A stretch of DNA of 64,000 nucleotides from Pedobacter sp. (GTDB lineage Bacteria; Desulfobacterota; Desulfuromonadia; Desulfuromonadales; Syntrophotaleaceae), in NCBI GenBank assembly GCA_050253415.1, contig JBFWJC010000001.1:288001-352000 (forward strand), in the 5' to 3' direction. Position 1 is the first letter of the stretch; every line of letters starts with the position of its first letter. The position numbers were made by a program, and so were the translations under genes. Of this stretch, positions 16,683 through 56,006 are shown piece after piece. The notes under the pieces were generated by a model, which was not told where the DNA came from, did no database searches, and saw only the letters and a program-made list of their open reading frames with translations.

Positions 16683-18836
16683 TTAGTTGTCGGTCAGGCT
16701 GGCGGCCAGCAGTTGGACGGAATGGACAACCCGGATCGGAGCAGTGTTCTTCTCCAGCAGGCCGCGTAACATGATCAGACATCCCGGACAATCTGCCGCC
16801 ACAACTTCGGCACCGGTGGCCAGGATGTCAGCAAGTTTATCCTTGGCGATGGCGCGGGCAATGGACGGTTGACCCAGTACCGAATAGGAACCGCCGAATC
16901 CGCAGCAGCGATCGGAGTGGGCCATCTCCGTCAGTTGCCAGCCGGCGCCAGCCAATAGCTGGCGCGGCTGCACGTGAACATTGGAGCCGCGGCGCAAATG
17001 GCAGGAATCGTGGTAGGTGACAGTTCCGGCGCTGCCCGGTGGGACAGCCGGCGAAGCGTCTGCAAGTTGTTCGACGAGCAGTACGGCCGCATCCCGGGTG
17101 ATGGCTGCCAGCCCTGCGGCGCAGTCGGCGAGAGCGGGGTCATCGGCCAGCAGCTCGGGGAAATGTTTGGTCAGTGCGGTGGTGCAAGTGGGGCAGACCG
17201 TGACCACCGCATCGGCCTGGGTCTGGGCCAGCGCCACAACATTCTGGCGAGCAAGTTCGGTGGCGGTTGCGGCATCCCCTGCATAAAGGGCCGGGATGCC
17301 GCAGCAGCTTTGTCCTTCGGGGTATACCAGTTCAATACTGAAATGCCGAAACAGACGGGCCAGCGCCAGTCCGATGTCCGGCAGGACAAATTCTGCGGCA
17401 CATCCTCCGAACAGGGCTACCCGCAGCCTCGGTGAGGCAACCCCAGGCTGTTCGGCCAACAGATCGCGCAACGGTCGCTCGGCGATGGCCGGCAGGGTGC
17501 GCCATTCGGTCAGGGAGGAAAAAAACAGCGGCAGGTGCCGAATGCTGGAGGCATTACCAGTGATCGGCTTCTGCAAGCGTGCGGCGGTTCGTAGCAGTCC
17601 GTGGAACAGCCGTCGGTTGCGCAGAACCCGTTTGAAGACCAGGTCCTTGATGGCGCCGACCCCTTCGCTCTCGGTCAGGCGGCGTCGCAAACCAAGGATG
17701 ATATGCTCAAGATCGATGTGCGCCGGGCAGACATTGACACAGGCGCGGCAGCCGATGCAGGCATGGATCAGTTCGGCGGCATCGTTCAGTCCGTGCAGGA
17801 AGGCCGTAAGCACGATACCGATGGCGCCGACATAGACATGCCCGAAAACGTGCCCGCCGATAGTCTGGTAGACCGGGCAGACATTGGCGCAGGCGCCGCA
17901 TCGAAGGCAGCGCCAGGCATCGCACGCTTCCTTCGACAAGGCCAGCTTGCTGCGACCGTTGTCGAGCAGTACGATATGCAATTCCCGCGGCTTCTCGCGG
18001 CCGGGCGACGGGCCCCGCAGCCAGGTCACATAGGAACTGGCCGCCTGGGCGGTGGCGTTGCGCGGCAGGACCTGCAGCACTCTGACGGCGTCTTCGAGAC
18101 TAGGAACCAGTTTGTCGATGCCGACCAGCACCACGTGCACCGGCGGTATGGTCGCTACCAGGCGGGCATTGCCTTCGTTGGTGACAAGAGCCAGGCTGCC
18201 ATCCTCAACCACTGCCAGATTGGCACCGCTGATGCCCATATCGGCGTTAAGAAATTCTTTGCGCAGGGTGCGCCGGGCGACCTCGACCAGGTGCGCGATA
18301 TCTTCCGACTCATGTTCCCCCGTCAACGTGCCGAATAGCTCCGCCACCTGATCCCGGAACATATGGATGGCCGGCATGACCATGTGGCTGGGACGCTGTC
18401 CGGCGAGTTGCACGATCCATTCGCCAAGATCGGTTTCGACCACCCGCATACCTATGTCTTCCAGGGCATGATTGAGGGCGATCTCCTCGCCGGCCATGCT
18501 TTTACTCTTGACGGCCAGGTGCGCTTCGTGACGTTGTGCCAGTTCGGTTATATAGGTATTGGCTGCCTGTGCATCCTGGGCCAGGAAAACCTTGGCTCCG
18601 GTTGCTTCGGCCTGTTGCATGAACAGTTTCAGCTGATGCGGCCAGTCATCGCGTACCGTATCCTTCATGGCGGCGATAGCATGGCGCAGGCCCTCAAAGT
18701 CGAGGTCGGCAAAGGCTTCGGCCCGGGCTGCCAGATAAGCGTCCCCAAAACGATGCAAGGCATCCTGGCGGCGAACATCGGACAGGGCTTGATCGATAAG
18801 GTGGCGATAATGGCGGGCACGACGGCTCATGTCCAA
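16683..18836 (-). CDS. L-lactate utilisation Fe-S protein, LutB-LutA (LldF-LldE) fusion
   Basis: LUD domain (VETDLGEW, VTNEGN), two CxxCxxCxxxCP motifs and two CCG domains (CCGIP, YHDSCH..CCGFGG). Confidence 0.85.
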   Translation of the reverse strand: MDMSRRARHYRHLIDQALSDVRRQDALHRFGDAYLAARAEAFADLDFEGLRHAIAAMKDTVRDDWPHQLKLFMQQAEATGAKVFLAQDAQAANTYITELAQRHEAHLAVKSKSMAGEEIALNHALEDIGMRVVETDLGEWIVQLAGQRPSHMVMPAIHMFRDQVAELFGTLTGEHESEDIAHLVEVARRTLRKEFLNADMGISGANLAVVEDGSLALVTNEGNARLVATIPPVHVVLVGIDKLVPSLEDAVRVLQVLPRNATAQAASSYVTWLRGPSPGREKPRELHIVLLDNGRSKLALSKEACDAWRCLRCGACANVCPVYQTIGGHVFGHVYVGAIGIVLTAFLHGLNDAAELIHACIGCRACVNVCPAHIDLEHIILGLRRRLTESEGVGAIKDLVFKRVLRNRRLFHGLLRTAARLQKPITGNASSIRHLPLFFSSLTEWRTLPAIAERPLRDLLAEQPGVASPRLRVALFGGCAAEFVLPDIGLALARLFRHFSIELVYPEGQSCCGIPALYAGDAATATELARQNVVALAQTQADAVVTVCPTCTTALTKHFPELLADDPALADCAAGLAAITRDAAVLLVEQLADASPAVPPGSAGTVTYHDSCHLRRGSNVHVQPRQLLAGAGWQLTEMAHSDRCCGFGGSYSVLGQPSIARAIAKDKLADILATGAEVVAADCPGCLIMLRGLLEKNTAPIRVVHSVQLLAASLTDN

Positions 18837-18841
18837 TTCCT

Positions 18842-19408
18842 TCAGCTTTCGAGAAAATCGTCGGACAACCCATCGAGCAGCAGGATATGCAACTCCCGGG
18901 GTCCATGGGCACCGATAGTCAAGACTCGTTCGATGTCGGCTGTGCGGCTCGGGCCGGTAATAAACGCGATAAAGTCAGGGCTTTGTCGGCTGTGCAGACG
19001 CCTGAGAAGAGGCACCGCCGCCATGTGGTCGGGCAGGATTTTATGCGGATTGAGCAAGACGAAGTGGCGCTCGGGCAAGGTGCTGGCAAGGCGAATGGCC
19101 TGCGCGGTGGACTCAATGACCACCGTGCCGGTGTCGGCCAGGCCGAAGTTGGCGCCGGTAATGCCGGCCGCGGCGGTGGCTGCCGCATGAAACAGGTCGC
19201 CGCAGATGACCTCGGCACCCTGTTCCCGCAGTAATTTTGCCAGGTTAAGTTGGCGGGCTGCCGGAAAGTCCGGCAAAACAATGTTGCCGCCGGCATGCCG
19301 GACGATATAGTCGACAGCAGCCTGGGTCGATAGACAGTGCACCGTACGTGCGCCAACCCGGCTGGCTGCCTGGCAGAATTGCTCGAAAAGCATTTCAGGT
19401 GTTTTCAT
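18842..19408 (-). CDS. Lactate utilisation protein LutC/LldG (LUD domain)
   Basis: FITGPSRTADIERVLTIGAHGP motif. Confidence 0.85.
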   Translation of the reverse strand: MKTPEMLFEQFCQAASRVGARTVHCLSTQAAVDYIVRHAGGNIVLPDFPAARQLNLAKLLREQGAEVICGDLFHAAATAAAGITGANFGLADTGTVVIESTAQAIRLASTLPERHFVLLNPHKILPDHMAAVPLLRRLHSRQSPDFIAFITGPSRTADIERVLTIGAHGPRELHILLLDGLSDDFLES

Positions 19409-19433
19409 GAAAGGTCGCGACCCCGATCGTCGC

Positions 19434-20183
19434 TCAGGCACCGCGTCCGGATTTGAAACGCTTGAGCCAGAGCTGGAATTCCTTTTCTTCGTGTTCCAGT
19501 TCGAAGGCGTTGATCAAGCCGCGGCGCAAGGCCACGGCGACGGAACGGTTGCGCAGGTTGAAAGCATCCCCGACTTTTTCGCCATGGAATTGTTCCTGAT
19601 CGACGCCAAGTTTGTTGTACAGGGAATTGAGGCGGCTCTGTACCCCCCGTCGCGAAAGATAACGTCGCTGGGCAATCAGGTTGTCGGTCAACCCCAGGGA
19701 AATATCGAGCAGCGCTTCGAATTCGATATCGGACAAAGCTGTCTGGCTATGCCCGGTGCGTCCTTGTACCTTACGCACTTCAGGGTCGATCCAGCATTGT
19801 TCCTCCAGCAGCACGGTGCGGATGGCGGATACGATGCGGTCGCGCGGATTGGACTTGAGAATGTAACCGTAAACGGTCTCAGGCGGGACGATGCGTGACA
19901 GCGTGCGCACATACATTTCGTCCTTGAACTGGCTCCAGAATACGATGCGGGCCTGGGGTTTGCGTTTCCAGAGGTTGCGCGCCAGCTCGATACCGTTCAT
20001 TTCCGGCATCTGGATATCGCTGATCAACAGCGGCTGCTCCAGTTGCAGGGCCAGTTCCAGGGCCGCCATGCCGTTGGGAGCCCGGTCGATCTGACAGGTT
20101 TCCTCCCACCCCTTGATCAGCAGTTCCAGAAATTCAAAATCACGTGGATTGTCTTCCGCGATTACAATGCGCACATCGGTCAT
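19434..20183 (-). CDS. Response regulator (REC plus LuxR-like HTH)
   Basis: IAED, SDIQMPEMNG; C-terminal HTH-like segment. Confidence 0.85.
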   Translation of the reverse strand: MTDVRIVIAEDNPRDFEFLELLIKGWEETCQIDRAPNGMAALELALQLEQPLLISDIQMPEMNGIELARNLWKRKPQARIVFWSQFKDEMYVRTLSRIVPPETVYGYILKSNPRDRIVSAIRTVLLEEQCWIDPEVRKVQGRTGHSQTALSDIEFEALLDISLGLTDNLIAQRRYLSRRGVQSRLNSLYNKLGVDQEQFHGEKVGDAFNLRNRSVAVALRRGLINAFELEHEEKEFQLWLKRFKSGRGA

Positions 20184-20188
20184 CCGTG

Positions 20189-21595
20189 TCAGTCCTCCTG
20201 GCTGCTGCCGGTCGGTACCGGCAGGGTCAGTTCAAAGCGGGTACCGCTGGAAAAACGCGAGCTGCTCCATCGCACCTGGGCACCGATGGTCCGTGCGCGT
20301 TCACGGATATTGTTCAATCCCCGACCGGCGCGCATGGCAACCTGTTCAAGATCGAAGCCTATGCCATTGTCTTCAATGGAAAGCATCACCTGGTCGCCGC
20401 AAACATTCAGATTCACTTCATAGCGCGAAGACCGCGCATGCTTGATGACATTGTGGACGGCCTCGACCGCAATGCGGTAAAGGGTCAGTTTCTGCAGGCG
20501 CGTCAAGCCGGTGTTGTCGATCTCCGGCGAAATGTAGAGATGATACTCCGGCATGTCCCCTTTGCCGAGGTGGCGCTCCAGGTGGGATTCCAGTGCCGCA
20601 CCCAGTCCCAGAATGTCGAGGGTCTGGGGGTGCAGGTTGTCCATCAACTGGCGCAGGTTGGCAATCGCCCGTAATAGATCCTCTTCCAGGGTGCAGACTT
20701 CGTTGCGCAGTTCCCCTTCCGCGGACAGGCTTTGCAAGCCGCGCAGGATGCCCGACAGATCGCACAGTGTCTGATCATGGATATCCATGGCAATGCGGCG
20801 GCGTTCTTCCTCAGCCCCTTCCAGCAGTTTTTCGGTTCCGACCACCCGGATAAGCTGATCGGTCATGTGGTTGATCGACAGAGCCAGATCATCCAGTTCG
20901 TCGCGCACCGGGTTGGGTGCGGGGGGCGGCGCCAGATCTCCCCGCACGATGCGGCCGGCACTGTCGCTGAGAGTCTGCACCCGCCGCAGAATGCCGCGGG
21001 CGAAAAACAGTGACAGCAGGATGCCGACGGGAATGGCTGCACCGAGGACAAATACGGATACCACTGCCGCCCTGTCCGTAAGATTGTCGAGATCTTTGCT
21101 GTTGGGCGGGGGCGAATCCTTGCGCATCTGCTTGGTCTGCTCGTTGAGTTTCAACAGGTTGGGGCGCAGCTGCTCCAGTCCTTCCGTAAAAACCCAGATG
21201 TTGAACTCATCCTGTTTGGGATAAACCGCCTCGACCGCACGGGCCAGCTCCTGCGCCTGTTCTTCGGGTAGAACCATGTATTTCTGCAGACGTTCAAGGC
21301 CGCTGGCCAGGTGGGCATAGGCCTGATCGAGATCGCGGAGCAGGGCATCCAGATTTTCGTAGCTGGCCTGCCCGCTTTTCACCAGTACCTGGTACTGGTG
21401 GACAGAGTCGTCCATCACCCGGGCCGCGATATTTGCTTCGGTAATCCCCATGAGGATCGCTCCGACCCCTTCGGCCTGTTCGCGCTTTCGGGACAGATCC
21501 ATATAGGTGTATTGCAAAAAAATCAGCAGCAGGGTCATCAATAGCAACACTGCCGCCGGTGCAATCAATATCTGATGTTTGAGAGTCAGTCGCAT
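20189..21595 (-). CDS. Sensor histidine kinase (HAMP, HisKA_3/NarX type)
   Basis: ERRRIAMDIHD, EAVHNVIKHA and EDNGIGF motifs. Confidence 0.9.
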   Translation of the reverse strand: MRLTLKHQILIAPAAVLLLMTLLLIFLQYTYMDLSRKREQAEGVGAILMGITEANIAARVMDDSVHQYQVLVKSGQASYENLDALLRDLDQAYAHLASGLERLQKYMVLPEEQAQELARAVEAVYPKQDEFNIWVFTEGLEQLRPNLLKLNEQTKQMRKDSPPPNSKDLDNLTDRAAVVSVFVLGAAIPVGILLSLFFARGILRRVQTLSDSAGRIVRGDLAPPPAPNPVRDELDDLALSINHMTDQLIRVVGTEKLLEGAEEERRRIAMDIHDQTLCDLSGILRGLQSLSAEGELRNEVCTLEEDLLRAIANLRQLMDNLHPQTLDILGLGAALESHLERHLGKGDMPEYHLYISPEIDNTGLTRLQKLTLYRIAVEAVHNVIKHARSSRYEVNLNVCGDQVMLSIEDNGIGFDLEQVAMRAGRGLNNIRERARTIGAQVRWSSSRFSSGTRFELTLPVPTGSSQED

Positions 21596-21661
21596 GACGG
21601 GCAAGATAACATAAAATTTATGTTGATGCACTGTGCTTCAGCACAGCCCCAAACCGTTGTT

Positions 21662-22675
21662 TCAAGCGCAGGGAGGGACATCCTCTCCGGCGAAAGCGGC
21701 CCGGGCTTCCCGCTCCAGATTTTCCGGGCTGCGCTGGTAGCGCGGCGAATGGTGAAAGACCTGCAGGCGGGCCACTCGAGCCAGGTATGCCAGACGTCCC
21801 GCCTGCCAGGCCGTCAAGTGGTTTCGCTGTCGTGCCCGCTCAAGGTCGCGGTGCGCAAACATCGCTTCGATATTCAATATATGTGCGTTTCGGGCCAGCT
21901 CCAGGATGCGTCGGAAATTGCCGAACACCGGTGAACAGTCGGTGACATAAACGACTTTCATCCCTTCCTCCGTCGACGCGATCGCTTCGCGCAGCACGCC
22001 AAGGGGAACCGAACACGTGCCACCCGTCGACAGAGGTACCATGACGTCCGTATCGGGGGCGGAATTTCGCAGAATCAGGTCCTTGAAGTGGACCAGCCAG
22101 GGGCCGGGCATATAGTCATGGCGCTCCAGCGCATCTTTGTGAATGGCAATATGCAGCGGTTCTTCCAGGGAGAAGGCCAGGGACACGATATCCCCATGCG
22201 TCAGACGTGAGGCCCGTATCCGGTACCAGGGGGTCTCATGCAGAATGTCGTTGTGGCAAGGCAACAGGCGCTCTGAATGGGGCCGGAATGCCTGGCTGGC
22301 CGGGAAGGTCACCTCCCGAATCCCTTCGGGCCGCCATTCGCGTACCGTCAATACGAACGGATAGCCATCGACCAGATTCCAGGTATAACCCTGCAGGCGT
22401 GCGGCTATCTGCTTTGCCAGGCCGGCCGGTCCGTACATCAGCAAGGTCAGATCTCTGGCCAGAAAGGTGCGCAGCAGCAGGTCGAACCCGACCAGATGAT
22501 CGATATGAGCGTGGGAAAGAAACAGCAGGCGGGTTTTGAGCAGCTCCCCGGGCGCAAGGGCATGCAGGTCGCCACAGTCGAACAGTAGCGCCTCGCCCCG
22601 GTAGGCGAGGCGCACATACAGCGCCGGATCACCGAAGGGGCCGTTGACAAGCCGGGGGAAAAAAACCGATCGCAT
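21662..22675 (-). CDS. Ribonuclease Z-like metallo-beta-lactamase
   Basis: SHAHIDH, YVTDC and FHHSPRY motifs. Confidence 0.75.
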   Translation of the reverse strand: MRSVFFPRLVNGPFGDPALYVRLAYRGEALLFDCGDLHALAPGELLKTRLLFLSHAHIDHLVGFDLLLRTFLARDLTLLMYGPAGLAKQIAARLQGYTWNLVDGYPFVLTVREWRPEGIREVTFPASQAFRPHSERLLPCHNDILHETPWYRIRASRLTHGDIVSLAFSLEEPLHIAIHKDALERHDYMPGPWLVHFKDLILRNSAPDTDVMVPLSTGGTCSVPLGVLREAIASTEEGMKVVYVTDCSPVFGNFRRILELARNAHILNIEAMFAHRDLERARQRNHLTAWQAGRLAYLARVARLQVFHHSPRYQRSPENLEREARAAFAGEDVPPCA

Positions 22676-22753
22676 CGGTTATGCCTTCCTGGTGCGGGGC
22701 CGCCATGGTGCCGGTCGTTGTCATGTTGGACAACGACCGGCGAGACCGGCAAT

Positions 22754-24127
22754 TCATTTGGTTTTTACAGTAGTGTAAATGGTCTGATCGCGGCGTTGAA
22801 CCAGCAGTCGCACTACCTTGTCGCTGCCTATTTTGCTCAGCAACTGCCGCAACGCGGAGGTTGAGGTAACGGAAGTACCGTTGACTTCCAGGATAACGTC
22901 GCCGGCGAGCACTTTCTCCGAGGCGGGACCGTTCGGTTCGACAGCTGTAACCAGCACGCCCTTTTCAACGCTCAGGCGATAGCGGCTGGCCACTTCGGGA
23001 GTGATATCGGTCAACGACAGACCGAGCGCCATCTCGGCTTTTTTCTCTTTGGTTTCTGCCGGTTGTTTTTCCTGGGAACCGATGGTCACATTGATGTGTT
23101 TCTGGCGTCCGTCACGGAACAGGGTCAGCCGCGCTTTCCCGCCAACCGGCAGGTCTGCCACCTTCTTGGGGAGATCGGCGAGGGTTTTGAGCGTTTCGCC
23201 GTTAACCTCAAGGATGATATCGCCTCTTTGCAAACCGGCCTTCTGGGCGGGGGATCCCTCCTGGACATCGGTAATCAGGGCGCCGCCGGCTTTTTTCAAG
23301 CCGAAAGAATCCGCCAGGTCCTGGGTGACTTCTTGTACCGATACGCCGATCCAGCCGCGAACCACATGGCCGGTATCCCGCAGTTGCGGGAGAATGCTTT
23401 TTGCCGCATTAACCGGTATGGCAAAGCCGATACCCTGTCCGCCGGCCACGATGGCAGTATTGATCCCAATTACCTGGCCGGCCTCGTTAAACAGTGGGCC
23501 GCCAGAATTGCCGGGATTGATGGAGGCGTCCGTCTGGATAAAGTCGTCGTAAGGCCCGGCGCCGATCACCCGTCCCTTGGCAGAGACGATGCCGACGGTT
23601 ACGGTCTGTTCCAATCCAAAAGGGTTGCCAATGGCCATGACCCATTCACCGACCTTGAGCTTGTCACTGTCACCCAGTTCGGCGACCGGCAACTGTTCCT
23701 GTCCCACATCGATCTTGACCAGCGCCAGGTCAAGTTTAGGATCGAGACCCTGAACGGCACCACTGAATTCGCGGCCGTCAGAAAGGCGCACTTTGATGAC
23801 ATCGGCTTCATCCACCACGTGATCATTGGTCAGGATGTAGCCATCGGCTGAAATGATGAAACCGGATCCCAGGGAGCGCTCCTTGCGGGGCGTCTGCTGT
23901 CCCTGAAAGAAGCGATCAAAGAATTCCTCCAAAAAATCGTTGTAGGGAGATGGCTGTCCGGGGAAAACCGGTCTTTGGGAGCGAACGGTTTTTGACGTAC
24001 TTATGTTGACGACCGAGGGCTTGAGGTTTCCCGCCAGTTCGGCAAAGTCGGGAACCGCAAACGCCTGGGCGGCCAGCAGCAGCAACGCCACGCAACCAAA
24101 TAGAATTCGACACGACTTGACCTTCAT
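22754..24127 (-). CDS. degP: DegP/HtrA serine protease with two PDZ domains
   Basis: TNDHVV and IQTDASINPGNSGGP motifs; signal peptide. Confidence 0.9.
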   Translation of the reverse strand: MKVKSCRILFGCVALLLLAAQAFAVPDFAELAGNLKPSVVNISTSKTVRSQRPVFPGQPSPYNDFLEEFFDRFFQGQQTPRKERSLGSGFIISADGYILTNDHVVDEADVIKVRLSDGREFSGAVQGLDPKLDLALVKIDVGQEQLPVAELGDSDKLKVGEWVMAIGNPFGLEQTVTVGIVSAKGRVIGAGPYDDFIQTDASINPGNSGGPLFNEAGQVIGINTAIVAGGQGIGFAIPVNAAKSILPQLRDTGHVVRGWIGVSVQEVTQDLADSFGLKKAGGALITDVQEGSPAQKAGLQRGDIILEVNGETLKTLADLPKKVADLPVGGKARLTLFRDGRQKHINVTIGSQEKQPAETKEKKAEMALGLSLTDITPEVASRYRLSVEKGVLVTAVEPNGPASEKVLAGDVILEVNGTSVTSTSALRQLLSKIGSDKVVRLLVQRRDQTIYTTVKTK

Positions 24128-24307
24128 GGATATCCTCCGCATAAGTGATGATAGCTGGTTGGAATCCCCCGTTGCAAAACGTGGTTAGCTGAAAATGTAA
24201 TCATTCGGAACGGATGTGTCAACTCGGAGGGGATGCTACCAGGGCTGCCGCAGGTCCGGCAGTGGAGGGAGAAGCCAAACGCGGAGCGGCCTAAGTCGCC
24301 TCACCCG

Positions 24308-25747
24308 CTAGGATGGGGAGTGGTCGTTGTCGGAGGAATTTTGTGGTCCCCGGCTAGGCAGATAAACGGTAAAGGCGCTGCCCGCCCCGTTGACCGAGGC
24401 AACCTCGACGCGTCCGCCATGGGCCTTGACAAACGATTCAACGATAGCCAGTCCGAGGCCGGTGCCACCATCCTCACGATTGCGCGCTTTATCAACACGG
24501 TAAAAACGATCGAAAATATACGGCAGATGTTCGGGCGGGATACCGATTCCGGTATCGGAGACTTTGACAACCGCCTCTTCGTCCGCCACGGACAGGGAAA
24601 TTTCGACGCGGCCGTTTTCCGGTGTATAGTTGACGGCGTTGGCGATCAGATTGAGAAAAACCTGGCGTAAACGCATCTCGTCACCCAGAATGCGGATTTC
24701 CTCGGTCACATTGGGGTTGAGTACCAACTCGATAGATTTTGGCTGAGCCAACGAGCGGCCCTGCATGTAGAGTTCCTGCAGCAGGTCACTGAGGCTCATT
24801 TCCTTGATGGTCAGGGGTTTCTGGCCTGCTTCACTCTTGGCCAGTAGCAGCAGATCCTCGATGATCCGGTTCATCCGGTCGATCTCTTCCATGTTCGAGG
24901 CGAGGATCTTGCGAAACTCCTCCGGTTTCTTAGCCCAGCGCAGGGCCACTTCGGTTTCCCCTTTAAGGATTGTCAGGGGGGTGCGCAACTCGTGGGAGGC
25001 ATCGCCGGAAAACTGTTTGATTTTGCGGAAAGATTCTTCCAGACGCCCCAGCATGGCATTGAAGGTTTCTGCAAGATGGGAGAGTTCGTCGCCGGAGGAA
25101 CGAACCGGCAAGCGGTGCGAGAGGCTGTCCACATTGATGCGACGCATGGCTCGGGTGAGGTTTTCAACCGGTGCCAGGGCCCTTCCGGCCAGAAACCAGC
25201 CCAGAATGGCCACCAACAGCAAGGCCATGGGACTGAATACCAGCAGCAGCGTGCGGAGTTCCTGCAGAGGTTCCTGAACCAGGCCCAGACCGGTGCCAAC
25301 CTGCAGGAACAACACCTCATTCGTGCTGGTCGTCAGCGCCAGGGTCAGAAGGCGCATCGGATAGGGACCGGCTTTATCCCTGGCGGTTTCCAGCACCATC
25401 CCTTGCACAGCCGCCGTCTTTAGCGTCTTGAGGTCTACGGACGGCGCATTGCCGATACTGCTGCACCCATCGCACAGCGATTGACCGGCGCCATCCACCA
25501 GCCGAAAAAAATGCCCCTGCCGATGGCGCCGGACGAATTCGCAGAAAACCCGGCATCGATCCTGCCCGGAAAAGCCCTGCGCCAAGGCAGGGCTTTCATC
25601 GGTCAATTTGATCAGTCGCTGGTCTGTCTGTCGCAGCAGACTGCTTGACAGTTGCTGGTACCAGACACAGCCGCTCACCACCAGCACCACGACGATTGTC
25701 AGGGTGTACCAGGCGGTAAGCCGAAATCGCAGGGAGTGGAAGAACAA
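24308..25747 (-). CDS. Sensor histidine kinase (HAMP-HisKA-HATPase, CusS/BaeS-like)
   Basis: DASHELRTP, NLIANAVNY and GGTGLGL motifs. Confidence 0.92.
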   Translation of the reverse strand: MFFHSLRFRLTAWYTLTIVVVLVVSGCVWYQQLSSSLLRQTDQRLIKLTDESPALAQGFSGQDRCRVFCEFVRRHRQGHFFRLVDGAGQSLCDGCSSIGNAPSVDLKTLKTAAVQGMVLETARDKAGPYPMRLLTLALTTSTNEVLFLQVGTGLGLVQEPLQELRTLLLVFSPMALLLVAILGWFLAGRALAPVENLTRAMRRINVDSLSHRLPVRSSGDELSHLAETFNAMLGRLEESFRKIKQFSGDASHELRTPLTILKGETEVALRWAKKPEEFRKILASNMEEIDRMNRIIEDLLLLAKSEAGQKPLTIKEMSLSDLLQELYMQGRSLAQPKSIELVLNPNVTEEIRILGDEMRLRQVFLNLIANAVNYTPENGRVEISLSVADEEAVVKVSDTGIGIPPEHLPYIFDRFYRVDKARNREDGGTGLGLAIVESFVKAHGGRVEVASVNGAGSAFTVYLPSRGPQNSSDNDHSPS

Positions 25748-46169: not shown

Positions 46170-47471
46170 ATGACTGAATATTTCAAGGATACCCTGGCCA
46201 ACGGACTGCGACTGGTCACGGTGGAAATGCCGCATCTGCACAGCGTCGAGATGGTCTGCCACGTCGGCGTCGGCGGACGCCACGAGCAGCACGACAAGGC
46301 CGGTATTTCACACTTTCTGGAACACATGCTGTTTCGCGGCACCCATGACTATCCCACGGGGCTGGCGCTGGAATCGGCTTTCGAGGCTCTTGGCGGCACC
46401 GCCAACGCCGCCACCGACGGCGAGACCACCTGCTACCATTCACGCCTGCATCCCGAGCACGTGGCCGAGGGCACCGCGATATTCGCCTCCCTGTTGCGCC
46501 GCACGCTGCTCAGCGATATAGACATCGAACGCCGCATCATCCTCGAGGAGGCCCTTGAAGACCTCAACGAAGCCGGCGAAGAGATCAATCCGGACAATTT
46601 GACCTGCAGCCTGCTGTGGCCGGATCACCCCTTGAGCCTGCCGACCGTCGGCACCCACGAATCGGTGCAGAACCTGACCCGCGAGGACCTACAGCAGCAT
46701 CTCGACACCTGGTACACCCCCGGCAATATCGTCATCGCCATCGCCGGCCGCGTCACCCGCGAGCAGGCCCTGGCCGCCGTCGAAGCCGCCTTCGGCGACT
46801 GGCAGGATCGCCCCGTGCCCACCGCACTGCCCGCTCCGACGCCGCTCGATAACGGTCCGTTGACCGTCTGGACGCGCGACGCCTCTTCGCAGATCCAGCT
46901 GCAACTGGCGTTTAATGTACCCGGCCGTAACGATCCGCGCACCCCGGCGCTGCGCCTGATCCGGCGCATCCTGTCCGGCAGCAGCGCGCGCCTGATGGTG
47001 CGCCTGCGGGAGCAGCTCGGACTTACCTACCATGCCGAAGCCAACCTCGGGCTGTACGACGATTGCGGCGTGTTTTCCATCGACCTCGCGGTGGCCCCGA
47101 CCAGCTTGATGCAGGCCTTGCAGGAAGTGCTGCTGATGCTGGACGATCTGCGCAACAACCCCGCCGGAGAAGAAGAACTGCAGCGGGTGGTGCGCACCTT
47201 CGTGTACGAACAGGAATTCAGCCTCGATCAGGCCGACACCCGCGCCGGTCGCTTCGGCTGGGGCGAACTGGTCGGCTATCCCCTGACCCTGGCCGAAGAA
47301 TGCCGCCAGGTGCAGGCCCTGACCGCCGCCCAGGTACGCGATGTCGCCGCCCAACTGCTCGATCCCAAGGCTCTGGCCGTGGCGTTTGTCGGGCCGTTTA
47401 ATGCGCGTCAGCGTAAAGAGGTGGAGAAGCTGCTGGCAGGGTATGTGGATAAGAAGAGCAAAGCTATTTAA
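46170..47471 (+). CDS. M16 family zinc peptidase
   Basis: HFLEH (HXXEH) motif. Confidence 0.92.
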   Translation: MTEYFKDTLANGLRLVTVEMPHLHSVEMVCHVGVGGRHEQHDKAGISHFLEHMLFRGTHDYPTGLALESAFEALGGTANAATDGETTCYHSRLHPEHVAEGTAIFASLLRRTLLSDIDIERRIILEEALEDLNEAGEEINPDNLTCSLLWPDHPLSLPTVGTHESVQNLTREDLQQHLDTWYTPGNIVIAIAGRVTREQALAAVEAAFGDWQDRPVPTALPAPTPLDNGPLTVWTRDASSQIQLQLAFNVPGRNDPRTPALRLIRRILSGSSARLMVRLREQLGLTYHAEANLGLYDDCGVFSIDLAVAPTSLMQALQEVLLMLDDLRNNPAGEEELQRVVRTFVYEQEFSLDQADTRAGRFGWGELVGYPLTLAEECRQVQALTAAQVRDVAAQLLDPKALAVAFVGPFNARQRKEVEKLLAGYVDKKSKAI

Positions 47472-47699
47472 CCGCTGAGTACGCCGAGTTCGCGGAGATA
47501 AGCATGTGATTTAAGGATGTGCCCTCCGCGGTCTTTGCGATCTCATCGGAGAGATGCTTGTCTTTTGGGATGGTTAGCACAGGCTTCAAACATTAGAATA
47601 TTTGACAGGTCAAGTTCTTTGCCGGTATTTATGAATGCGTTTTTAATTCGATGCCGGAGGGGACATGCAGTTGGTGCGTCAGCCCAGAGTCAATAAATC

Positions 47700-47741
47700 A
47701 GAGCCGCTTGGCCGGATATAATCCGGTGGGCGGCTCTTTTT
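47700..47741 (+). terminator. Intrinsic terminator upstream of the cassette array
   Basis: AGAGCCGC..GCGGCTCT stem followed by a T run. Confidence 0.7.
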
Positions 47742-47783
47742 GTTGCGATATTCGGGGACTATCAGTAGGTAGAAAAATGGAGA

Positions 47784-47889
47784 GGATATTTTCCACTTTT
47801 ACTCCTTTAATAATTCAATAAGTGGAAAATAGTCCATGCTATAGGGGTGATATGATGGAAAATTTTCCACTTAACAACAATGTTGAAAT
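47784..47889 (+). other. Candidate integron attI site (crossover at G47882|TT)
   Basis: ACTTAAC-N6-GTTGAAATC. GTTGAAATC is the exact reverse complement of GATTTCAAC at the end of cassette 1. Repeated TTTTCCACT/AGTGGAAAA motifs lie upstream. Confidence 0.65.
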
Positions 47890-47903
47890 CTCCAGGGAGA
47901 AAT

Positions 47904-48215
47904 ATGAAAAATTATATTTTGGCTTTCTTTTGTTTTGCCATACCAGCATACCTTCTCTCAGGTTTGTTCGGGCTTGCTCCTTACCTAAAAATGCTAGGCC
48001 CTGCTCAACTTGCTATAAAGCTCATGCTTCTTGGTGGTTTTGTTTTTGTTCTAGTGTCGTTTTGGAAACTGGAGAGCCTCACCACGGATGATAAGCTTTT
48101 TTGGACAATAGGCACTCTGTTCGTAGTGCCTATAGGTCTTCCTTTGCTTTATTTCAAACTTAGCAAAGAGATGCAGCAGACCGATTTCAACCAAGCGGTG
48201 CACTCGGACGGGTGA
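47904..48215 (+). CDS. Cassette 1: small membrane protein
   Basis: AGGGAG RBS; three hydrophobic segments; stop codon lies inside attC1. Confidence 0.75.
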   Translation: MKNYILAFFCFAIPAYLLSGLFGLAPYLKMLGPAQLAIKLMLLGGFVFVLVSFWKLESLTTDDKLFWTIGTLFVVPIGLPLLYFKLSKEMQQTDFNQAVHSDG

Positions 48216-48289
48216 AACAGGGGCGATTCTCGTTTAGGTGTCTACCTGGCCTTACCGTCTCGTCGCCGCCGGTGACCTCAACGTTAGGC
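48185..48289 (+). other. attC1 (105 bp)
   Basis: TTTCAAC-N5-GGT[G]CAC[T]CGG[A]CGG ... CCGCCGGTGACC-N5-GTTAGGC. Confidence 0.9.
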
Positions 48290-48771: not shown

Positions 48772-48888
48772 GCCTAACAAGTTTATCAAGCGGATGGAAA
48801 ATAGCAGGGTGCTTCCCGAGAAACAAAATCAAATTGCGGTAGTAGGCCGAACCGTCGCGTCGCCACCGCTTATCGCCAAACGTTAGGA
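48772..48888 (+). other. attC2 (117 bp)
   Basis: GCCTAAC..ATCAAGCGGATGG ... CCACCGCTTAT..GTTAGGA. Confidence 0.9.
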
Positions 48889-50746: not shown

Positions 50747-51166
50747 ATGAGAATCACAAAGAAAGGAAAATTTGGTTCTGAATTAATGCGACTTGTCGCA
50801 AGCAAATTGCGTCTTGGCAGAAATCTCGTCAGCAACCACCGAGATTATTGTGGCTATGGTTTGTTCTACGAAAACAATCAATATAATATGGGCATTGCTC
50901 ATGACGGCACATTTGACCAAAAAGAAATCATTCATTCATGGAACAAAACAGAAGAGTTTATAGCCTACTTTGCACCACTTACAGACTTTAAGTGCAGTGG
51001 AAAAGCAAAGGAGGAATTGTTTTCAAACGGCCCAATAGAAAATCAAAGAATAACAAAATCAAGGTTAATCGAATTTTTAGGTGAGTACGGGTTATGCCCC
51101 ACTTGCAATGAAATATTATTCAGCACAAAAGCAATACAATGTCCACATTGCAAAGTAAAATGGTAA
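50747..51166 (+). CDS. Cassette 6: hypothetical protein with C-terminal zinc ribbon
   Basis: CPTC..CPHC motif. Confidence 0.8.
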   Translation: MRITKKGKFGSELMRLVASKLRLGRNLVSNHRDYCGYGLFYENNQYNMGIAHDGTFDQKEIIHSWNKTEEFIAYFAPLTDFKCSGKAKEELFSNGPIENQRITKSRLIEFLGEYGLCPTCNEILFSTKAIQCPHCKVKW

Positions 51167-51229
51167 AAAACGCCTAACACTTATCAGGCCCCCGGCCGTC
51201 AAGAGTAAAAAATTCCGTTAACGCAAAAG

Positions 51230-51700
51230 ATTGCTCCTTTGGTTCTTTGACAAGCGACTGATCAAACAGGCTTACCGGTCTCTGACTTGGGCTTACCCTC
51301 TGGCTGCAGACGAATTCTGCTCCAAACACTTATCGAGGCTCTTTATGCAGGAGCCGGTATTCGTTGCCCCGGTACTTCCTGCCGCCTGGAAACACTTGCG
51401 TAACCTTATGCCGTCCCATTCAATACATCGGGGTCCATCCACCTTCGATGGCCGCAGTTAGGTGCGGGATCGGGGAAGGGGCAGAATCCGGCGCTGGCCC
51501 GTTTCGAGCATCGCACGAAAGTATGTGGGAGCGAGACGGATCTCCAATCAAAACCAATTGGCTGACGCTGGTCGACTGATCATGCGGCCTTGGTTGCGGA
51601 GTCTTTGCTCCAGAAGTCTGCGCTTCATATCGGCCGTTCTTGCGATCTATCCGTGGTTTGTGTCGCCAGTTAGACTCTCAGGCTGACCCGTCCCCTCCCT
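51230..51700 (-). ncRNA. Putative bridge/seek RNA of the IS110 element; ends approximate
   Basis: Structured region 3' of the transposase with segments matching the attC target (GUCUAAC/GUUUUG, ACCUAAC/GUAUUG) and the IS circle junction (GAUAAGUG). Confidence 0.7.
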
Positions 51701-52750
51701 TCAGACGACCTTACGCAGGAATCGCTCCTGATCGAAGGGCGCTTGATTTTTAAGCATGAAATAGACCGCGCGGCCCAGGCGATGCGCGAGGATCGCCAGC
51801 GCTTTGCCCTTGCCGTAGCGACTGGCCAGTTTTTGCAACACGGCTTGCGCCGGTTTGTTGCCTTTGAGCATCATCACCACCGCCTCACCGAAGGCCCAGC
51901 GCAGGTGTGCATTGCCGATCTTCTTGCCGCTGTGTCCATAGGATTTACCGTTCGATTCCTTGGCCGGTTTGACCAACCGGCAGTAAGAGACAAAGTCCTG
52001 CACACGGGGGAACCGCGCGATATTTTCGATTTCATAGAGCATCACCAGCAAGAGGATGCGGCCGACACCGTGAATGCTTTTGAGTAGTGCCAGATTGATA
52101 GGGTCATGGCCGACTGCGATTTTCTCCAGATGCCGCTCCAGGATGCCAAGTAGATCCTCGTAGTGCTCGATGGTCGAAAGATCGACCTCGACCATGGCGC
52201 GGACAATCGGATCCTGGAACTTGGCAGGCAGATCTCCACGCTCACTCGGCTTGGCAATCCGGCCCAAAGGCTCTGGCAGATTGTACTGAGTGGCGGTATT
52301 TTGGATATGGGCATAGAGTTCGGCCCGCTTGCGCGCCAGATGATTGCGGCGTCGCAACAGGTCACGGGTGGCGCGCATCTTTTTCGGGTAGGTGTAGGCC
52401 ACCGGGAAAGATCCGCCGCGAAGCAATACGGCAATTTTGTGGGAGTCGATCTTGTCATTTTTGGCCTTGCCGCCATGGATGGCGCGCATGTAAAGCGCAT
52501 GCCCGAGGACGAAATCGATCTCCTCGTTGGCACAGAGATCGGCCAGCCAATACCAGGTGAACATGCACTCGCAACCGACAACAAGGTCTTCGCGGTAGGG
52601 TTTAATCAGGCGTAAAAAGGCCTTTGGCCGCGTCGGGATGTTCTTGTGCAGGACCACCTCGCCAACTGAATCGAGGACACATACGAACATGGCACTGGCG
52701 TGTAGATCGATGCCGCAATAGAATCGGTGCTGTTTGGTGTAAAATTTCAT
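51701..52750 (-). CDS. IS110-family DEDD transposase/recombinase
   Basis: GIDLH, GCEC and KNDKID (DEDD); SIHGVG, ESNGK and GNAHLRWAF motifs. Confidence 0.95.
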   Translation of the reverse strand: MKFYTKQHRFYCGIDLHASAMFVCVLDSVGEVVLHKNIPTRPKAFLRLIKPYREDLVVGCECMFTWYWLADLCANEEIDFVLGHALYMRAIHGGKAKNDKIDSHKIAVLLRGGSFPVAYTYPKKMRATRDLLRRRNHLARKRAELYAHIQNTATQYNLPEPLGRIAKPSERGDLPAKFQDPIVRAMVEVDLSTIEHYEDLLGILERHLEKIAVGHDPINLALLKSIHGVGRILLLVMLYEIENIARFPRVQDFVSYCRLVKPAKESNGKSYGHSGKKIGNAHLRWAFGEAVVMMLKGNKPAQAVLQKLASRYGKGKALAILAHRLGRAVYFMLKNQAPFDQERFLRKVV

Positions 52751-52950
52751 GGTGCAGGTTCCTTTCTTTGAGAGGGTTTCGGGTTCTCAAAGGATACCGG
52801 ATGGTCCGGTATCTGGAGGGGGCCTGCACTAGTATCAAAACTTTCAAGCGGACAGGCGACACAGTGGCACTTTCCGAATAATGTCTACCAGTTTGTTTTG
52901 CGGTGGACTGCCGCTTAAAGCAATTCGTTAAGTGGCAAGAAAGATAATTA

Positions 52951-53886
52951 ATGGCATACGAATTAAATAAACGCTTAGTTGTTGGACTCGCCTCAAGCGC
53001 CCTATTTAATCTTGAGGAGTCTGATGAAATATATCGGACAAAAGGTGCCACTGCTTACCGAGAGTTCCAGCGCGAACATCAAAACAAACCATTAGAGGAA
53101 GGCGTTGCCTTCCCATTCATCAGGCGGCTCCTTTCACTCAATGAGTTGTCCCCAAGTGACCACCCTGTTGAAGTAATTTTGCTTTCTAGGAATAGTCCCG
53201 ATACTGGCATGAGAGTGATGAACTCGCTTGAATATTATGGCTTAGGGATCACAAGATCAATCTTTCTCGAGGGAAAGCCACCGTATGTGTACATTCCTTG
53301 CCTAGATATAAATTTATTTCTGTCAGCAAATGAGGCAGATGTAAAGCAGGCTAACTTAGCTAGTTATCCAGCTGGGCAAGTCCTAACCTCAAAGCACTTC
53401 GATGATCCAAACGATCATGAATTAAGAATAGCTTTCGACTTTGATGGTGTTCTCGCTGACGATGAATCTGAGACTATTTACCAAACGACGGGCGATTTAG
53501 ATGCATTTAGGGAACATGAGAGAAAACTAGCAGAAACCCCGCACAATCCAGGGCCACTTAAGGATTTTCTTGAAAAGATCGCTTACATACAAAAGCTTGA
53601 GGAAACACGGGCAAGTGAAGATAGTTCCTATAAAACTAAGATAAGAATATCAATTGTAACAGCAAGAGACGCACCATCACACAAAAGAGTAATTAACACT
53701 ATGAGAGCATGGGGGATTAACGTAAATGAGGCGTTTTTTCTTGGTGGCATCGAAAAAAGAAAAGTTCTAGAGGTGCACAATCCCCACATATTCTTCGATG
53801 ATCAAAAGCTTCACCTAGAGTCAGCGTCAGAGGTATTACCATCCGTCCATATTCCTTTTGGAATAACAAACAACAAAGTCACTTAA
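52951..53886 (+). CDS. Cassette 7: 5'-nucleotidase family protein
   Basis: LVVGLASSALF, LSRNSPDTG, LRIAFDFDGVL and PHIFFDDQ motifs. Confidence 0.88.
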   Translation: MAYELNKRLVVGLASSALFNLEESDEIYRTKGATAYREFQREHQNKPLEEGVAFPFIRRLLSLNELSPSDHPVEVILLSRNSPDTGMRVMNSLEYYGLGITRSIFLEGKPPYVYIPCLDINLFLSANEADVKQANLASYPAGQVLTSKHFDDPNDHELRIAFDFDGVLADDESETIYQTTGDLDAFREHERKLAETPHNPGPLKDFLEKIAYIQKLEETRASEDSSYKTKIRISIVTARDAPSHKRVINTMRAWGINVNEAFFLGGIEKRKVLEVHNPHIFFDDQKLHLESASEVLPSVHIPFGITNNKVT

Positions 53887-53999
53887 CAATAAAATCAGCC
53901 GGACGGAAAATACGTCTGCGCTAAATTGAAAAGCAAAACCTAAAATTGCGGTGGTGGCCGAACCTTAGGGTCGCCGCCGGTTATCATGAACCGTTCGGC
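53881..53999 (+). other. attC7 (119 bp; variant core GTTCGGC)
   Basis: ACTTAAC..ATCAGCCGGACGG ... CCGCCGGTTAT..GTTCGGC. Confidence 0.85.
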
Positions 54000-55930: not shown

Positions 55931-56006
55931 GCATAACAAGGCAAATTAACTCTGTTCGCAAATTCCGCTGCGCTCCCTTCGCGCCCGGTTATTTGCAAAG
56001 TTAGAC
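55931..56006 (+). other. attC10 (76 bp), closing an ORF-less cassette
   Basis: GCATAAC..GCAAAT[T]AAC ... GTTATTTGC..GTTAGAC. Confidence 0.8.

Follow-up and report, generated by a model that had tools for sequence, protein, structure and literature searches.

Bacteria capture genes chiefly through integrons, whose cassettes all have just one sequence in common, attC. The 64,000-nucleotide (nt) stretch of Pedobacter sp. DNA analysed here (GenBank assembly GCA_050253415.1, contig JBFWJC010000001.1, positions 288,001 to 352,000; hereafter the window, to which coordinates refer unless a contig is named) carries an insertion sequence (IS) of the IS110 superfamily within attC6, the sixth attC site of a cassette array, which raises the question of how such an element finds its target and whether it belongs to the elements already known to use attC sites. 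The explanation that accounts best for the evidence, and which we regard as probable, is that an intact element resembling ISGsu4 and ISPca4 came to lie in attC6, most likely by RNA-guided recombination. A previous sequence-only reading of this DNA had described an IS110 element inserted exactly into an attC site, and its description is correct in every detail that can be checked; Pfam and NCBIfam matches and the flanking sequences of both copies of the element in this genome agree with it.

The 1,656-bp element sits directly after the R'' box of attC6, as a precise insertion. The stretch GCCTAACA at 51172-51179 is followed by the element (51180-52835), by CA at 52836-52837 and by the remaining attC, which ends with GTTAAGT at 52926. 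As CA also forms the last two letters of the stretch at 51172-51179, the same dinucleotide is found on both sides of the element, and no longer target duplication is present at either genomic copy. Removal of the element and one CA restores an attC in which AAC is separated from the AAGCGG-type box by 9 nt, as is likewise the case in the neighbouring sites at 48772, 49434, 49893, 50630 and 53881. The equality of spacing with the neighbours asserted by the sequence-only reading thus holds, while the value it gave (N5) depends on the chosen start of the L box. An arm test, which sets the pairing of the R'' arm with a partner 44-150 nt distant and ending in GTT against that in 200 dinucleotide shuffles, is passed by the reconstructed attC6 (p = 0.025), and a minus-strand attC scan catches 52835-52933, i.e. 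the 3' part of the split site. Imperfect inverted repeats (R''/R' and L''/L'), a same-direction array and single-gene cassettes are all found at this locus. An attC covariance model (R1), built from seven intact sites of this genome, reports six intact sites in the window (48185, 48772, 49434, 49893, 50630 and 53881), five of them before the split site and one after it, in line with its designation as attC6.

The element itself is richer in G+C than the low-GC array around it, and its transposase gene (52750-51701, minus strand) runs antisense to the cassettes. Its subterminal inverted repeats are 9 bp long and perfect, and with the ends set between the two copies of CA they lie 9 nt from the left tip (ATACTAGTG) and 5 nt from the right tip (ATAAG); 85 nt upstream and 521 nt downstream of the transposase gene are non-coding (element orientation). 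The transposase matches PF01548 at residues 12-156 (1.9e-15), PF02371 at residues 221-301 (7.9e-17) and the NCBIfam model NF033542, named 'IS110 family RNA-guided transposase', at residues 11-337 with 178.6 bits against a cut-off of 140. Hence, DEDD/RuvC-like and Transposase_20 domains are combined with a short shared core and no long target duplication, as in the IS110 superfamily. Two traits of the IS1111 family, subterminal inverted repeats and a long downstream non-coding region, are present as well, while the terminal extensions of 9 and 5 nt do not match those of that family, given as 7 bp (occasionally 6) on the left and 3 bp on the right (PMC11187229); the repeats of the family are usually 11-13 bp (PMC11187229), or 7-17 bp (PMC11208160), in length.

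A short left end, subterminal repeats and a long 3' non-coding region give the element an IS1111-like layout; its clade branches off deep within the IS110 superfamily and also includes ISGsu4 from Geobacter sulfurreducens and ISPca4 from Syntrophotalea carbinolica. Among the 120 closest proteins listed, identities range from 75 to 91% and the named ones come from Desulfuromonadales; the closest relative named by its source is a 'transposase of ISPca4' with 80% identity. Among the best 40 of 560 tblastn matches to plasmids, 62% identity is reached in Candidatus Manganitrophus and 53-55% in Alteromonas, Vibrio and Pseudoalteromonas, and no ISKpn4-type record was recognised among these 40. ISGsu4, whose transposase was judged by eye to be clearly homologous over the stretch printed in a published supplement, is listed as 'IS110, 20 copies, 5 unique insertion events' and shares 15-23% identity with the 160 elements shown in its matrix row, where it is labelled 'IS110' (PMC11187229). 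The -35 and -10 boxes of a promoter formed only at the junction of an excised circle may be provided by TTGAC, conserved close to the right end, and by GATACT of the left tip, respectively. Junction promoters of the IS1111/IS492 type are the model for this proposal.

That the placement in attC6 is not due to chance follows from the second copy of the element. The genome holds exactly two IS110-family genes, both in attC-sited copies, and the only other one sits at the identical position of another attC. This copy on contig C16 measures 1,651 bp, with 79% DNA and 84% protein identity, and lies between ...GCCTAACA and CA + spacer + AAGCGGACGG, i.e. at the same phosphodiester of a different attC; the flanks common to both copies are ...GCCTAACA on one side and CA + spacer + AAGCGGAC... 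on the other. The flanks of other genomic copies, to which the sequence-only reading had pointed as a check, accordingly show the same site on C16.

For the relatives, an alignment of the clade was compared with contigs of one genome per species, whereby 610 stretches were matched and 583 of them confirmed by tblastn. The best 80 (57-93% identity) were used, giving 82 elements together with the two own copies; the right end of one relative (L023) was judged false and dropped. These 80 relatives span at least ten phyla, mostly anaerobic and environmental ones, including Thermodesulfobacteriota, Nitrospirota, Pseudomonadota, Acidobacteriota, Planctomycetota, Gemmatimonadota, Actinomycetota and Binatota. 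The left end is conserved in 77, the right end in 67 and both ends in 63 of the 82 elements, and over 59 distinct elements the end repeats covary (LE10:RE-6, left-end position 10 with right-end position -6, complementary in 0.90; LE16:RE-12 in 0.95). In element orientation, the shared core consists of G at -1 and +2 throughout (1.00), with T at -2 in 0.93 and at +1 in 0.77.

Most of these copies lie in attC-like sites at the same position, and not at unrelated non-attC sites. Read in element orientation, NGTT opens 45 of 48 distinct right flanks, and N+GTTRRRY occurs in 19 of the 48 compared to a background of 111 per 135,453 positions (0.0008 per position). On the left side, the 71 distinct flanks terminate in TTG and show A at -9 (0.83), T at -12 (0.86) and TC at -17/-16 (0.70). 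Applied to the joined flanks, the arm test gave p<=0.05 for 26 of 51 evaluable sites (about 2.5 expected) and p<=0.01 for 10 of 51, the passing sites being spread across the whole clade tree; many of the failing sites are attC-like by eye, the test having picked the wrong partner. Whole-site folding energy, the attC test tried otherwise, selected over-long partners without discrimination and was replaced by this arm-duplex test. The attC model of this genome matches directly beside the left end in eight loci, and in contigs from four metagenome runs further contexts have (C)TAACA preserved next to the right end, with CA and an L''-like box next to the left end.

Two observations on single relatives may be added. 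Near-identical copies, L061 and L063, lie about 3.8 kb apart on the Acidimicrobiia contig CAVVYL010000059.1 (20621-24655 and 16846-20880, respectively), and L063 passes the arm test (p 0.02), while L061 fails it (p 0.88). A 53%-identical relative on plasmid NC_022271.1 of Vibrio campbellii ATCC BAA-1116 (18389-24423), flanked by ...CAGATTG and TGTTATG..., shares the end motifs as well as the conserved non-coding blocks A, B and E described below, and adjoins a second IS110-family gene and an IS4 transposase gene.

How the site is recognised is suggested by the 3' non-coding region. Alignment of this region from the 59 distinct elements revealed five conserved blocks, A to E, within two candidate guide-RNA domains (Table 1). 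For domain 1, RNAalifold on 51 of the 59 sequences (eight near-duplicates out) predicts 12 pairs, each with double-sided changes in one sequence or more; for domain 2, predicted from the 34 of the 59 sequences that are without the long variable hairpin, 11 of 20 pairs show compensatory changes. Block A (...CTAAC) is complementary to the R'' side of attC from the shared G outward, matching at 6 of 9 positions in this element, and block B reads in the sense of the left flank and the shared TG (6/9), the AT after it being the first two letters of the element. Block D is complementary to left-end positions 3-8 in many relatives, with 3 of 6 positions matching here, and its role as right-donor guide in this particular element is only tentatively proposed. 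Block E (6/6) joins the letters of the right tip to the shared dinucleotide and to the two letters with which the right target flank opens, and RE-2 covaries with it, the same letter being found in 0.92 of the elements (mutual information 0.69). Block C may be a handshake-type guide or the pairing partner of block E. The long non-coding end thus encodes a predicted structured RNA with covarying stems, whose loops match target and donor sequences.

These matches exceed those obtained after permutation of the partners. Block A gave 293 matches versus 258.1 +/- 6.2 permuted and block B 235 versus 195.1 +/- 7.1, each over 47 elements, while block D gave 229 versus 196.3 +/- 5.7 and block E 299 versus 277.8 +/- 4.0 over 59 elements. 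For each of the four blocks, none of 5000 permutations reached the observed matches, a figure that overstates independence, since the permutations ignore kinship among the elements or among the attC sites of an array. The covariation scan of ends against the non-coding region returned the inverted-repeat pairs and block E; a register-based test was needed for block D. In 51000-53100, Rfam gave only two chance-level matches (E 2.2 and 3.2). A 9-mer, GGCGACACA (element coordinates 1169-1177), complementary to the variable centre of this attC, was also considered as a guide and was rejected because the target of the second copy is without it and about 0.3 such matches are expected by chance.

Relatives at deviating targets are of particular value in this respect. 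Three lineages lie at sequences other than attC, L031 and L036 at xGTAGGTGT and L055 at TGTATTTGAC, and their guide blocks have changed to match. Block A of L055 fits its GTATTTGAC flank in 9 of 9 positions, that of L031 and L036 their TAGGTGT target in 7 of 9, and that of L047, which has a variant R'', in 8 of 9. The change of TT to TA in block E and of AAC to TAC in block C is found in exactly L031, L036 and L055, the three with TA as flank; block C reads CTTAC in these three lineages with TA instead of TT after the shared G. This has the look of natural re-direction in the clade. In the quick tree described below, L031 and L036 form the only clade with a non-GTT target; L025 and L080 carry a 'nonGTT' label only from a contig ending at the element.

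On the explanation favoured here, RNA-guided recombination of the kind known from bridge-RNA and seekRNA elements would have brought the element into the attC of cassette 6, as double-stranded DNA, at the CA overlapping the final R'' base. Transcription of the element's 3' non-coding region would yield an RNA with two domains. In domain 1, one loop would be complementary to the R'' side, its guide being in effect a copy of the R'' consensus RYCTAAC, and the second loop would match the spacer side (…TTG), while the loops of domain 2 would match the right and left tips of the element itself. With this RNA bound to it and directing the insertion, the DEDD transposase would go on to swap strands of the target and of a circularised copy of the element at the TG/CA that both share.

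Table 1 Features of the interrupted attC6, the inserted element with its candidate guide RNA, and the adjacent cassettes
Feature	Position	Strand	Remarks
attC6, 5' part	51172..51179	+	R'' box GCCTAAC + A, reads GCCTAACA; from sequence
Insertion sequence, complete	51180..52835	-	1,656 bp; ISGsu4/ISPca4-like clade of the IS110 superfamily
Right-end subterminal inverted repeat	51185..51193	-	GGGGGCCTG in element orientation, then 5-nt tip ATAAG
Conserved TTGAC near right end	51198..51202	-	candidate -35 box; consensus of 59-element alignment
Guide-RNA domain 2 (donor-binding, candidate)	51312..51502	-	blocks D and E in multiloop, CTGC/GCAG closing stem
Block E, candidate left-donor guide	51317..51338	-	GATAAG + TG + TT; domain 2
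Block D, candidate right-donor guide	51385..51401	-	variable 6-mer, then TTC; domain 2
Block C	51457..51462	-	second conserved CCTAAC; within domain 2
Guide-RNA domain 1 (target-binding, candidate)	51526..51700	-	outer stem enclosing large loop
Block B, candidate left-target guide	51546..51555	-	GGTTTTG, then ATT; domain 1 loop, 3' strand
Block A, candidate right-target guide	51669..51677	-	GAGTCTAAC; domain 1 loop, 5' strand
Transposase gene	51701..52750	-	349 amino acids; DEDD/RuvC-like N-terminal domain + Transposase_20 domain
Left-end subterminal inverted repeat	52818..52826	-	CAGGCCCCC in element orientation, element positions 10-18
attC6, 3' part	52836..52926	+	second CA, spacer, L'' (AAGCGGACAGG), variable centre, L' (CTGCCGCTT), R' (GTTAAGT)
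Cassette 6 open reading frame	50747..51166	+	139 amino acids, no Pfam family; owner of the split attC
Cassette 7 open reading frame	52951..53886	+	5'-nucleotidase (PF06189, E 9.1e-126)
attC7, intact	53881-53999		after cassette 7 open reading frame

Two other explanations bear on what the element is and how it reads its target. It might simply be another member of the IS1111-attC group (ISKpn4, ISPst6, ISPa21 and the more distant ISPa25), reportedly described by Tetu & Holmes 2008 and Post & Hall 2009. Elements of that group likewise insert at the R'' side of attC in one orientation, with the right end at R'' and the transposase antisense to the cassettes, and likewise combine a DEDD transposase with subterminal inverted repeats and a long 3' non-coding region, which encodes a guide RNA in which the match to the top strand precedes, in 5' to 3' direction, that to the bottom strand (PMC11187229); seekRNAs have been shown for ISKpn4 and ISPst6 (PMC11187229). 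For comparison, members were fetched from metagenome contigs via a 25-nt right-end motif, yielding 11 loci with a transposase open reading frame (ORF) of more than 250 amino acids, nine of which start MKRIAVDLAKSVYQV-like, while L148 has that start internally and L108 is N-terminally truncated. Compared to an ISKpn4-type transposase (L096), the present enzyme shows 20% identity over 260 amino acids (two-sequence BLASTP, E 0.098), and a profile-profile alignment with the group (hhalign) gives 22% over 305 of 349 columns (probability 82.6). In a quick maximum-likelihood tree (IQ-TREE) of 63 rows, from which L029 and L055 were dropped for stops in the translated range, the six reference rows are split off across a branch of about 10 changes per site with 100% support in the Shimodaira-Hasegawa-like approximate likelihood ratio test (SH-aLRT), so that the present transposase falls in a separate clade and is not nested within theirs. 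In the published matrix, ISGsu4 is 17.41, 17.09 and 17.72% identical to ISPst6, ISKpn4 and ISPa21, respectively, whereas members of the group share 74-90% with each other and about 46% with ISPa25 (PMC11187229). The ends differ as well, with ...GGGGAGAGTCCATAT(A/G) at the right end of the IS1111-attC group versus ...GGGGGCCTGATAAG in this clade, and tips outside the repeats of 7 and 3 nt versus 9 and 5 nt. Between the right end and GTTAG or GTTAT, 48 of 49 distinct flanks of the reference group have 5-6 nt (read from printed flanks), and in this clade GTT lies 1 nt from that end; the former elements cut between spacer and L'', the latter at AA[CA], about 5 bp nearer R''. In the reference loci, the remaining attC lies past the left end. 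The non-coding regions show no likeness, judged by eye, and the hosts are Pseudomonas and clinical class 1 integrons for the group but mostly anaerobic, environmental phyla for this clade. Membership in the IS1111-attC group is hence very improbable, and the separate transposase lineage suspected by the sequence-only reading is borne out. As to recognition, the transposase could read attC directly, as sequence or as a folded hairpin like an integron integrase, with the 3' region serving merely as terminator, promoter or transposase-binding site. The conservation of the left flank at -9, -12 and -16/-17 exceeds the reach of the candidate guides, the matches of this element's own guides are partial, and the guide RNA is a prediction from sequence, all of which would be in keeping with such direct reading. 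This distal conservation, however, falls where attC has its L'' box and would be expected from attC sites as such. In lineages with other targets, block A has changed to match, as have blocks E and C where TA follows the shared G, and the stems around the loops covary. Moreover, NCBIfam names the family RNA-guided, and the RNA was required in experiments on members of both IS1111 and IS110 (PMC11187229). Direct reading is thus improbable in our view, though we hold it less so than membership in the IS1111-attC group.

Several points weigh against RNA-guided insertion into attC as the clade's habit: besides the kinship ignored by the permutations, the matches of this element's own right-target, left-target and right-donor guides are modest, no Rfam family was found in the whole window at gathering thresholds, only 26 of 51 reconstructed sites pass the arm test, and the attC model of this genome, which is tuned to its own site type, recognises few foreign sites (13 matches in 80 loci). 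Four loci (L035, L045, L076 and L089) have no candidate partner box, L031, L036 and L055 and probably also L027, L061 and L083 have a non-attC look, and neither an empty attC6 nor a circle junction was found in the contigs of four public runs, which cannot show rare forms. This last result also bears on the idea, raised by the sequence-only reading, that the element could act as a regulated reversible switch which locks cassettes 6 and 7, beyond being a selfish parasite of attC. By separating R'' from L''-L'-R', the insertion should render attC6 unusable as a substrate of the integrase, as judged from its anatomy, and with attC6 split, cassettes 6 and 7 and the element would move only as one unit unless the element excises; this unit would be bounded by attC5 and attC7, and precise excision would restore the site. 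IS110-family elements do excise precisely (PMC11187229, PMC11208160), and immobilisation of cassettes by ISPa21, an element of the IS1111 group, has already been proposed in print (PMC11616780). However, an integrase gene is missing from the window array, the sole full integron integrase gene (TIGR02249, 447.6 bits) being 1.4 Mb away, insertions occupy only 2 of the at least 38 attC sites of the genome, and nothing ties excision to any signal. A selfish safe haven, intergenic and horizontally spread as attC sites are, needs no host function, and we consider a regulated switch unlikely.

The probable case of RNA-guided recombination may also be set beside systems studied elsewhere. As in the bridge RNA of IS621/IS110, each loop here would read both strands around a shared core dinucleotide, and where IS621/IS110 has 'handshake' letters after the core, block B ends with the first two letters of the element and block E with those of the target (PMC11208160). 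In contrast to IS621/IS110, the RNA would lie 3' of the gene instead of 5', with the guides of each domain in reverse order and the donor guides placed in a multiloop, and the element has long inverted repeats (9-10 bp) and a TG core in place of CT (PMC11208160). As here, IS1111-type seekRNAs carry the top-strand match on the 5' side of the bottom-strand one (PMC11187229), and IS1111-type bridge RNAs have their donor guides in a multiloop (PMC11208160). Group IIC-attC introns are also attC specialists inserted antisense to cassettes, but these retroelements, with ribozyme and reverse transcriptase, use an unrelated mechanism (PMC3001079).

The array that received the element occupies the low-GC part of the window from about 48 kb and consists of short ORFs in the same direction. 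Imperfect palindromes of 105-119 nt, with RYYYAAC at the start and GTTRRRY at the end, stand between them. Of nine cassette ORFs examined, seven match no Pfam family, and the other two encode ankyrin repeats and a 5'-nucleotidase, respectively. About 700 bp (47472-48185) with one family-less ORF of 111 amino acids lie between an M16 peptidase (46170-47471) and the first attC (48185-48289). A 63-nt palindrome at 55944-56006 (AATTAAC...GTTAGAC) is attC-like on both strands in the arm scan, but is far shorter than the other sites of the array and is not reported by model R1. Across the genome, at least 36 attC sites were detected at E<=0.01, with 150 of 570 candidates scored. A complete integron with intI and at least ten attC matches is located at C1:1750302-1758457, and at least four integrase-less attC arrays are present including that of the window, the others being on C8:112349-117127, C2:109869-118946, C5:16464-18026 and C16:375-4927. 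A short integrase-like fragment at C2:470321-470557 has an attC match about 1 kb away (C2:471387-471486).

That elements of the IS110/IS1111 superfamily target attC, and that they are guided by RNA, is already known. In full-text literature searches, with ISfinder, TnCentral and the founding papers outside their scope, no description of the present clade as attC-targeting was found; those on ISGsu4 and ISPca4 returned unrelated papers only and no statement of attC targeting. As far as these searches tell, a remote ISGsu4/ISPca4-like lineage that targets attC across phyla, with a different cut and its own guide architecture, is apparently not in print. On balance, we lean towards the view that specialisation on attC arose independently of the IS1111-attC group in a second lineage of RNA-guided recombinases, very old and found across phyla (583 confirmed matches), with an R''-like guide loop and a cut 5 bp away from that of the known group. 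In environmental and anaerobic bacteria, this lineage may be the chief parasite of integrons.

If this holds, the 'IS110/IS1111 in integrons' of surveys would be more than one thing, and environmental cassette arrays would be shaped by a class of elements that annotation lumps together. The off-shoots with other targets, L031/L036 and L055, would mean that the same scaffold is reprogrammable. Hence, the clade would constitute a natural series of guides and targets for a bridge- or seek-type recombinase with IS1111-like architecture and a deep-branching enzyme, useful for learning how guides evolve and how a guide handles a degenerate, structure-defined target. If two lineages of about 20% identity each evolved a guide RNA for the same end of attC, attC would be a recurrent safe haven for RNA-guided elements.

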